From NCBI GenBank assembly GCA_965203805.1, contig OZ241917.1, forward strand, positions 3,136,001 through 3,200,000: a DNA stretch of 64,000 bases. The letters are read 5' to 3'. The translations under genes were made by a program, and so were the position numbers. The DNA is from Candidatus Latescibacterota bacterium (GTDB lineage Bacteria > Latescibacterota > UBA2968 > GCA-2709665). Under the pieces are notes generated by a model that saw nothing but the letters and a program-made list of their open reading frames with translations, ran no database searches and had not been told where the DNA came from. Shown piece after piece: positions 5,759 to 6,028 of this stretch (its first letter is position 1; the number at the start of each line of letters is the position of its first letter).

Positions 5759-5787
5759 TTGACACTCTCGACGTGATTGTTTAATGT
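5759..5787 (+). promoter_or_regulatory. Sigma70-type promoter for the aromatic amino acid operon leader
   Basis: TTGACA (5759-5764), 17 bp spacer, TAATGT (5782-5787). Confidence 0.65.
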
Positions 5788-5866
5788 TAGACCGTTCCTG
5801 CTGGAAAGGCAGGTTGCCGAAACACGGCGCGAGACCGGCAGGACGCTGGATCAAGGAGGATCGAAC

Positions 5867-5974
5867 GTGACGGATCGTGGTCGGAACAGGCTTGCCTGGC
5901 GTGGGTATTTTTACCGTTCCTACCGGTGGTATTACCGGGAGGCCGCGGAACGTCATGTCTGCCCACGCGAGTAA
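5867..5974 (+). CDS. Attenuator leader peptide rich in Trp/Tyr/Phe (MTDRGRNRLAWRGYFYRSYRWYYREAAERHVCPRE)
   Basis: AAGGAGG (5853-5859) before GTG 5867; 8 aromatic codons among codons 11-23; overlaps the attenuator pairing segments. Confidence 0.85.
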   Translation: MTDRGRNRLAWRGYFYRSYRWYYREAAERHVCPRE

Positions 5975-6008
5975 ATCGTCAGCAAGTCTGAGAACCTGGC
6001 CGTGGGCA
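5899..6008 (+). promoter_or_regulatory. Attenuator alternative pairings (1:2 protector, 2:3 antiterminator)
   Basis: GCGTGGGTA (5899-5907) pairs with TGCCCACGC (5960-5968); TGCCCACG (5960-5967) alternatively pairs with CGTGGGCA (6001-6008). Confidence 0.8.
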
Positions 6009-6028
6009 TCTGCTCACGGTTTTTTTTT
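5999..6028 (+). terminator. Intrinsic terminator (attenuator 3:4 hairpin) upstream of trpE
   Basis: GCCGTGGGCA-TC-TGCTCACGGT hairpin with a T run at 6020-6028. Confidence 0.9.

Follow-up and report, generated by a model that had tools for sequence, protein, structure and literature searches.

A predicted trpL-type attenuator with mixed tyrosine, tryptophan and phenylalanine codons ahead of the trp-tyrS-aro gene cluster in Latescibacterota

Can a single leader peptide read the charging of all three aromatic tRNAs, and so govern a long cluster of aromatic amino acid genes? The question is raised by the region upstream of trpE in a 64,000-nucleotide (nt) stretch of a Candidatus Latescibacterota genome (assembly GCA_965203805.1, contig OZ241917.1, positions 3,136,001 to 3,200,000 of the forward strand), hereafter the window. 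A first-pass annotation had described there an attenuator with the geometry of Escherichia coli trpL and had proposed that it integrates tryptophan (Trp, W), tyrosine (Tyr, Y) and phenylalanine (Phe, F) signals on behalf of a pan-aromatic operon. We computed the anatomy of this leader, its alternative folds, its conservation and the co-variation of its codons with operon content. Based on these we are confident that the element is a real attenuator, and we consider it probable that it is a ribosome-mediated, leader-peptide switch of the trpL type, on which the ribosome would stall if any one of Tyr-, Trp- or Phe-tRNA were poorly charged. We further lean towards the view that more than one aromatic amino acid feeds into it, chiefly Tyr.

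The leader lies directly ahead of trpE and is made up of the following elements, given in window coordinates.

5758..5787, plus strand: promoter, CTTGACA with the -35 hexamer TTGACA at 5759-5764, a 17-nt spacer and a -10-like TAATGT at 5782-5787 (read from the sequence).
5796..5843, plus strand: hairpin predicted in the 5' part of the leader transcript, seen in both the minimum-energy and the centroid fold of 5795-6035.
5853..5859, plus strand: Shine-Dalgarno (SD) sequence AAGGAGG, 7 nt 5' of the GTG start (read from the sequence).
5867..5974, plus strand: leader upstream open reading frame (uORF), with GTG at 5867-5869, 35 codons MTDRGRNRLAWRGYFYRSYRWYYREAAERHVCPRE and TAA at 5972-5974 (read from the sequence).
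5897..5935, plus strand: regulatory codons 11-23, W-R-G-Y-F-Y-R-S-Y-R-W-Y-Y, with two W, five Y, one F and three R (from the sequence).
5899..5907, plus strand: segment 1, GCGTGGGTA, partner of segment 2 (pairing and fold).
5915..5950, plus strand: internal hairpins CGTTCC/GGAACG around CCGGTG/TACCGG, extending the 1:2 pairing (minimum-energy folds).
5960..5968, plus strand: segment 2, TGCCCACGC, inside the codons for V-C-P-R and ending 4 nt 5' of the stop (sequence, pairing and fold).
6001..6008, plus strand: segment 3, CGTGGGCA, the left terminator arm (sequence and pairing).
5998..6028, plus strand: intrinsic terminator with its stem at 5998-6021, segment 4 as the right arm at 6012-6021 and T9 at 6020-6028 (terminator prediction).

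The promoter motif, the strong SD and the 35-residue uORF with its run of aromatic codons were all found where the first-pass annotation had placed them. Aromatic codons occupy eight of the 13 positions in the regulatory run, against a combined W, Y and F share of 6.5% in the genes downstream (17 of the 18 cluster genes, with the chorismate mutase left out of this background), and five of the eight are Tyr. The T-tract ends 36 nt upstream of trpE. At the other end of the leader, the motif CTTGACA-N16-18-TANNNT occurs three times in the window against 0.12 expected, one of these being 5758-5787, and the CTTGACA promoter motif is found in the same position 5' of the leader in most relatives in which the upstream region was read.

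The mutually exclusive pairings claimed for this leader were all recovered. Segment 1 forms nine base pairs with segment 2, one of them G-U, and segment 2 can instead form eight Watson-Crick pairs with segment 3, which is itself the left arm of the 3:4 terminator. The minimum-energy fold of the naked leader (5867-6028) contains the 1:2 helix together with the CGTTCC/GGAACG and CCGGTG/TACCGG stems (the latter given as CCGGT/ACCGG in the first-pass annotation) and the terminator. When a stalled ribosome was mimicked by deleting the RNA to 13 nt beyond the A-site codon, with segment 4 still absent, the 2:3 helix formed at all eight aromatic codons (W11, Y14, F15, Y16, Y19, W21, Y22 and Y23), at -20 to -38 kcal/mol, and when the ribosome was placed on the stop codon the terminator alone remained. 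The candidate stall sites precede segment 2 by 25-71 nt, and the stop codon starts 4 nt past it; a terminating ribosome would therefore cover segment 2, as had been proposed, and one stalled within 5897-5935 would leave it free. The fold of 5795-6035 has a z-score of -3.2, and segment 2 lies inside the final leader codons in all four families of the class. Taken together, the leader combines a uORF and ribosome-binding site, cognate codons, exclusive pairings and the stall and stop geometry of a trpL-type attenuator, and the modeled folds support a switch of this type. The ascription of E. coli trpL geometry thus agrees with anatomy and folds, and also with conservation.

TrpE is present in 41 of 41 relatives, and 30 trpE loci from nine genera were retrieved. 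A uORF of 30-35 codons that contains an aromatic cluster and precedes the same terminator occurs in 29 of these, and in the thirtieth the contig stops 137 nt 5' of trpE. The leader was likewise found at all 20 further loci of the order, and hence at 49 of the 50 loci looked at in an order of 53 genomes. Across these 49 leaders W occurs 1-2 times, Y 2-6 times and F 1-4 times, so that the conservation of aromatic codons expected by the first-pass annotation is borne out. Of the compensatory changes that it also anticipated, the terminator provides a clear case: in an alignment of 29 sequences its pairing is kept in 98.3% of alignment cells, and eight of the sequences have both partners of a pair changed, from C-G to U-A. 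The TG(C/T)CC of segment 2 is invariant or almost so in the same alignment. Per-sequence folding with the ribosome stalled on the last aromatic codon gave segment 3 an upstream partner in 21 of the 29 sequences; in seven of the remaining eight, the rule had chosen a C-terminal or late Phe codon at or past segment 2, a position at which a stall has no meaning. Within the genus of the window, relatives have a GGAGG-like SD at the same spacing, and their leaders show synonymous swaps (TAT/TAC, CGT/CGC and GGG/GGA) with the frame and the aromatic residues kept; exchanges between Y and F are occasional, and among the aromatic positions conservation is highest at Tyr. An order-wide pattern search matched 21 of 21 genomes of genus g6, with the motif beside trpE wherever coordinates were known. 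Its matches in g1 were rejected as chance, the loop of the pattern being one base too long for the genus of the window.

In genera g2-g5 (loci L015-L023) a second conserved promoter-like motif, similar to CTTGACAA-N17-TATTTAT, lies between the terminator and trpE, with a conserved AGAATTCTTACAGTTA-like element downstream of it; together they may constitute a second promoter with an operator. Regulation in g2-g5 would have another layer. The window carries neither the second motif nor the AGAATTCTTACAGTTA-like element between terminator and trpE.

We then compared leader make-up with cluster content across the class, which comprises four families: f1 and f2, which form the order of the window; f3, a sister family; and f4. 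Codons were counted in the best 16-residue window of each leader, and four f3 leaders (L125, L126, L130 and L131) were read by eye. The leaders of f1, f2 and f4 are mixed, with W 1-2, Y 2-6 and F 1-4 times, and each of the 52 has at least one W, at least two Y and at least one F, that is, codons for several amino acids in a single leader. The f3 leaders are of the classical tandem-Trp type (RRWWWRFW, RRYWWR, HRWWRIW etc.), with W 2-4, Y 0-2 and F 0-2 times in 17 of 17. The gene cluster itself is kept class-wide. In f3, a trpS gene coding for a 327-residue protein follows trpC at nine of nine loci (the two proteins scanned score 377 and 370 bits with TIGR00233, whose cut-off is 177), and the f3 clusters contain no tyrS and no AroFGH-type 3-deoxy-D-arabino-heptulosonate 7-phosphate (DAHP) synthase. 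The tyrS gene, on the other hand, lies in the cluster at nine of nine f1/f2 loci (the window included) and two of three f4 loci, and trpS at none of these 12.

In the genome of the window (G000) trpS is located elsewhere, at 4137517-4138593 on the minus strand, and is preceded by a leader of its own (contig C1, 4138669-4138746, minus strand). This leader has 25 codons, MAARGIHSGCWWRHDFNRTGRLTAC, with tandem Trp (CWWRH), its own promoter and a terminator with an alternative pairing. Such WW(W) leaders occur 5' of trpS at 19 of 20 f1 loci and at none of ten f2 loci. A genome-wide scan for an SD, a small open reading frame (ORF) and a terminator returned two aromatic-rich candidates, one of them the trpE leader; it overlooked the trpS leader, in which the T-run is interrupted and which was found by reading the sequence. 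An aromatic-rich ORF at genome position 3771723 was rejected as lying within a 924-residue ORF, as was a 'thr-like' ORF at 880640 situated inside a long ORF. A regular-expression and aromatic-window scan of the genome revealed no second copy of the trpE leader or of its terminator.

Elsewhere in the phylum, outside the class, a W-x-W-type uORF with a terminator precedes trpE at at least five of 15 loci, so that the Trp type looks ancestral and the Tyr-rich type derived. Leader codon make-up thus tracks what the leader controls, as a cis-acting codon sensor predicts. In this light we tentatively put forward, as possible and a little short of probable, that the element is a true three-input sensor re-tuned from a tandem-Trp ancestor, the sensing for trpS having moved to the separate WW leader. 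In similarly tentative terms, the re-tuning may be seen in an order whose cluster has tyrS and the DAHP synthase and whose leader is dominated by Tyr, with Trp and Phe kept.

Some further features of these families and genomes deserve mention. In f4 (L161 and L163), a DAHP synthase with an N-terminal ferredoxin-like domain (Pfam check on L161 only) replaces the AroFGH-type enzyme of f1 and f2; judged by its predicted domains, the f4 entry enzyme is a non-homologous swap inside a conserved cluster. A TrpE match at E<=1e-100 was obtained in 18 of 65 sampled f3 genomes, with many genera lacking one, and the genomes without a match may be Trp auxotrophs or have a distant enzyme. Arg codons are a regular component of the leaders, at about three per cluster window. 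The whole genome G000 has nine Omp85-family matches and no LpxC or Spo0A_C match; unless the screening filter let a match slip, the organism would have an outer membrane but lack the usual gene for lipid A.

The attenuator of the window is followed by these genes and by a candidate end of the transcription unit.

6065-7555, plus strand: trpE (NCBIfam).
7530-8168, plus strand: trpG (NCBIfam).
8228-9241, plus strand: trpD (NCBIfam).
9238-10101, plus strand: trpC (NCBIfam).
10110-10784, plus strand: trpF (NCBIfam).
10869..12131, plus strand: tyrS, tyrosine-tRNA ligase (TIGR00234 at 381 bits against a cut-off of 113.8).
12228..13205, plus strand: HMGL-like aldolase-family gene (4-hydroxy-2-oxovalerate-aldolase-like), between tyrS and trpB.
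13305-14516, plus strand: trpB.
14569-15381, plus strand: trpA.
15371-15664, plus strand: chorismate mutase (CM), 97 residues.
15679-16716, plus strand: AroFGH-type DAHP synthase (DAHPS).
16795-17907, plus strand: tyrA with an ACT domain.
17993-19300, plus strand: aroA, 5-enolpyruvylshikimate-3-phosphate synthase.
19582-20460, plus strand: aroE.
20463-21215, plus strand: ubiE-family methyltransferase.
21524-23227, plus strand: argS.
23224-23787, plus strand: aroK.
23810-24958, plus strand: aroB.
25499..25531, plus strand: first strong intrinsic terminator past the attenuator, with a 15-bp stem, likely the end of the transcription unit.

The cluster spans about 19 kb in the order trpEGDCF-tyrS-x-trpBA-CM-DAHPS-tyrA-aroA-aroE-ubiE-argS-aroK-aroB. 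A search for strong terminators between 6028 and 25499 found none, and there is no further CTTGACA-type promoter inside the cluster. By tblastn, tyrS, the cluster DAHP synthase, the chorismate mutase and tyrA are each present as one copy in the genome. The first-pass description of a pan-aromatic operon holds for the trp genes, tyrS, chorismate mutase, DAHP synthase, tyrA and the shikimate genes. The HMGL-like gene is present at two of the eight related f1/f2 loci checked. Within the shikimate part lie argS and the ubiE-family gene, and argS keeps its position class-wide.

We propose the following mechanism, for which we infer the transcription start, the coupling, the stalling, the acting amino acids and the extent of read-through. 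Transcription would start a few bases past 5787, whereupon a ribosome would load at the strong SD and translate the 35-codon leader. With Tyr-, Trp- and Phe-tRNAs all charged, it would reach the TAA at 5972-5974 and mask segment 2, leaving 3 to pair with 4 and the polymerase to stop at the T9 of 6020-6028. If any of the three tRNAs were poorly charged, the ribosome would stall within codons 11-23, covering or disrupting segment 1 and leaving segment 2 free; 2:3 would then pair once segment 3 is made, the terminator would not form, and transcription would read through trpEGDCF-tyrS-x-trpBA-CM-DAHPS-tyrA-aroA, probably as far as aroB. The weight of each input would follow codon number (five Tyr, two Trp and one Phe), i.e. 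Tyr > Trp > Phe; judged from the codons, the case would be strongest for Tyr and weakest for Phe. In effect, aromatic tRNA charging would govern Trp synthesis, the one tyrS detected and, within the aromatic pathway, its entry and shared steps.

Several observations weigh against this proposal and temper it. The first-pass promoter assignment stands on a motif that is rare in the window and positionally conserved; its -10, TAATGT, agrees with the consensus at just three of six positions, because of which a generic consensus promoter scan of 5300-6400 called none. The antiterminator helix (2:3) is paired in 87% of alignment cells and 1:2 in 71%, both with little covariation and the latter in a register that varies by genus (29 sequences). 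These two helices rest on conservation and energy rather than on compensatory change. Integration of all three amino acids, too, is only partly sustained: all three codon types are kept in the order, but the leader is Tyr-dominated, its Trp codons are single instead of tandem, and Phe has just one codon in the window. Neither Trp position is invariant, W11 being replaced by R or L, and W21 by L, Y or R, in some members of the genus, although both are never lost together. The association between leader type and aminoacyl-tRNA ligase amounts to about three lineages (f3; f1 with f2; f4), relatives within each not being independent. As to the reach of the switch, weaker promoters could lie in the gaps 19300-19582 and 21215-21524; since tyrS and argS are essential and lie downstream, there has to be some basal read-through or else internal promoters that escaped notice; and in g2-g5 the second motif would possibly let transcription bypass the attenuator. 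The pan-aromatic description, moreover, does not extend to pheA, which lies about 92 kb upstream, outside the cluster, with no evident leader; a candidate leader in its upstream region, with a T10 run and an F/Y-rich frame, was rejected for want of a start codon. With pheA elsewhere, the operon would serve Trp and Tyr directly, and Phe via the common pathway and chorismate mutase only. Termination in cells and its relief by starvation are predictions from the sequence. A cautionary precedent is the F-Y-F leader aroR of the Corynebacterium glutamicum aroF operon, which, in the summary of Neshat et al. 2014 given in the accessible part of PMC11802643, responds to Phe and not to Tyr; codon presence alone does not, therefore, prove sensing.

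RNA data bear on the leader as well. A single metatranscriptome study provides two contigs over the leader, one at 5813-6007 and the other at 5829-6028, both derived from relatives 93-95% alike; trpE has separate cover, no contig covers 6029-6358, and none bridges the terminator into trpE. As contigs cannot show ends, this cover is at most a weak hint. Further upstream, the stretch 5630-5725 between a short-chain dehydrogenase/reductase gene and the promoter of the leader holds a dispersed repeat, about 90 nt long. It has 57 blastn matches in the genome, those listed being of 85-95% identity, and no match in Rfam; its copies often lie directly 5' of T-runs and attain very high depth in metatranscriptome contigs.

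Three other explanations have to be set against a switch that reads more than one aromatic amino acid. The predominance of Tyr (five of eight aromatic codons), the superior conservation of the Tyr positions within the genus, the coincidence of Tyr-rich leaders with a tyrS in the cluster, the absence of each W position from some genus members and the Y-F swaps would all be compatible with an effectively single-input Tyr attenuator, mainly for control of tyrA and the sole tyrS, in which Trp and Phe codons are relics or neutral aromatic substitutions. We regard this as unlikely, in that at least one W is present in all 52 mixed leaders although W makes up 0.57% of codons (17 cluster genes), F occurs 1-4 times in each of the 52, and the first genes controlled are trp genes, where a Trp signal fits. 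The reverse simplification, a classical Trp-only trpL attenuator in which Tyr and Phe codons are incidental, for example imposed by overlapping RNA structure, would suit the position of the leader before trpE, its apparent descent from W-rich leaders of the phylum and the overlap of the first W codon with segment 1. However, where this lineage has Trp-only leaders (before its own trpS and before f3 trpE) they are tandem WW(W), an arrangement lost in the window leader. Furthermore, Tyr codons vary between TAT and TAC yet stay Tyr, which points to selection on codon meaning and not on pairing, and most of them (Y16-Y23) lie beyond segment 1. A Trp-only attenuator is hence improbable in our estimate.

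It is also conceivable that the leader is no codon sensor at all, its RNA or 35-residue peptide acting in trans, or a protein or a translation-rate signal (such as the Arg codons) setting termination. Sinorhizobium provides a model in the trans-acting products of its trp attenuator, the small RNA (sRNA) rnTrpL and the peptide peTrpL, and trans roles of attenuator-derived sRNAs and leader peptides are described in the accessible parts of PMC7968998 and PMC7298713. The presence of about three Arg codons per cluster window in all families, and to a weak degree the short metatranscriptome contigs that cover the leader only, might be accommodated in the same way. Nevertheless, apart from the aromatic cluster and the residues encoded by segment 2, the peptide is poorly conserved between genera, aromatic content shifts with operon content as expected of a cis sensor, and the leader matches no Rfam family, the T-box included. 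A trans role would in any case supplement attenuation and not substitute for it. We therefore assign this explanation a very small probability, and return to the multi-input, ribosome-mediated attenuator as the preferred reading.

How such a leader relates to known systems can be stated with some precision. The known aromatic leader peptides trpL and pheL each read one amino acid, and multivalent attenuators are exemplified by E. coli thr (Thr and Ile) and ilvGMEDA (Leu, Val and Ile). With the latter the present element shares a single leader carrying regulatory codons for several amino acids on which the operon depends, but those systems integrate branched-chain or aspartate-family amino acids. 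In Firmicutes, T-box leaders of tyrS and aromatic operons respond to uncharged tRNA-Tyr by raising expression through antitermination. The functional outcome would be alike; however, a T-box binds tRNA directly and needs no translation, and a T-box covariance model had no match in 5400-6400 (E<=10) or in the whole window (gathering scores). An Rfam scan of 5400-6400 at E<=10 gave chance matches only, the best being SorY at 15 bits where 111 are needed, and a gathering-score scan of the whole window matched solely a tRNA, with neither Trp_leader nor another curated leader family. Given that the leader fits no Rfam model and belongs to a small, little-studied phylum, annotation pipelines will miss the element.

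The E. coli trpL attenuator of trpEDCBA, as described in the accessible part of PMC11802643, is the closest in design: both have a promoter-proximal leader ORF, exclusive 1:2, 2:3 and 3:4 pairings, a stop adjoining segment 2, a U-run terminator just 5' of trpE and an Arg codon after Trp. They differ in that here the Trp codons are apart, with five Tyr and one Phe codon interspersed; the peptide has 35 residues against 14 in E. coli, with no sequence or Rfam similarity; and the unit also includes tyrS, chorismate mutase, DAHP synthase, tyrA and shikimate genes. Mixed aromatic codons and attenuation of the entry enzyme of the aromatic pathway are common to the present leader and C. glutamicum aroR, which, as far as the available account goes, has three aromatic codons and no Trp and precedes neither trp genes nor a tRNA ligase, against eight codons of three kinds here. 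The parts of PMC1262725 and PMC2965389 at hand describe leader-peptide attenuators of tRNA-ligase genes, namely pheST in gamma-proteobacteria and trpS and leuS in Streptomyces in the former, which also mentions T-box leaders, and hisS paralogs in bacilli in the latter. They share with the present case a ligase gene under a leader rich in its own codons, and the trpS leader of G000 (CWWRH) is of this type; here, by contrast, tyrS sits in the middle of a biosynthetic operon. Finally, the uORFC-13-1 motif before aroF in Acholeplasma, tied to a conserved phenylalanine residue in the accessible part of PMC8632094, is likewise a candidate uORF with a terminator controlling DAHP synthase, but belongs to another lineage and, in that account, has no trp genes. 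As for the prior description that the first-pass annotation left to a literature search, in open full-text papers (relevant non-open ones not being covered) we found neither a leader combining Trp, Tyr and Phe codons nor leader-peptide control of tyrS.

If the proposal is correct, multivalent attenuation would extend to the aromatic family and would embrace translation-based control of the tyrosyl-tRNA ligase. Should the three-input reading in particular hold, the element would have no demonstrated forerunner among leader-peptide attenuators in reading Tyr-tRNA and controlling a tyrS; it would do by translation what the tyrS T-box does in Firmicutes, and would illustrate how codon replacement can retarget an attenuator in nature. 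The class offers three natural forms for a codon-swap comparison, namely the WW leader with a trpS-containing cluster in f3, the Tyr-rich leader with a tyrS-containing cluster, and the separate WW leader of trpS, and comparing them would put to the test how a leader's codon composition determines what the switch responds to.

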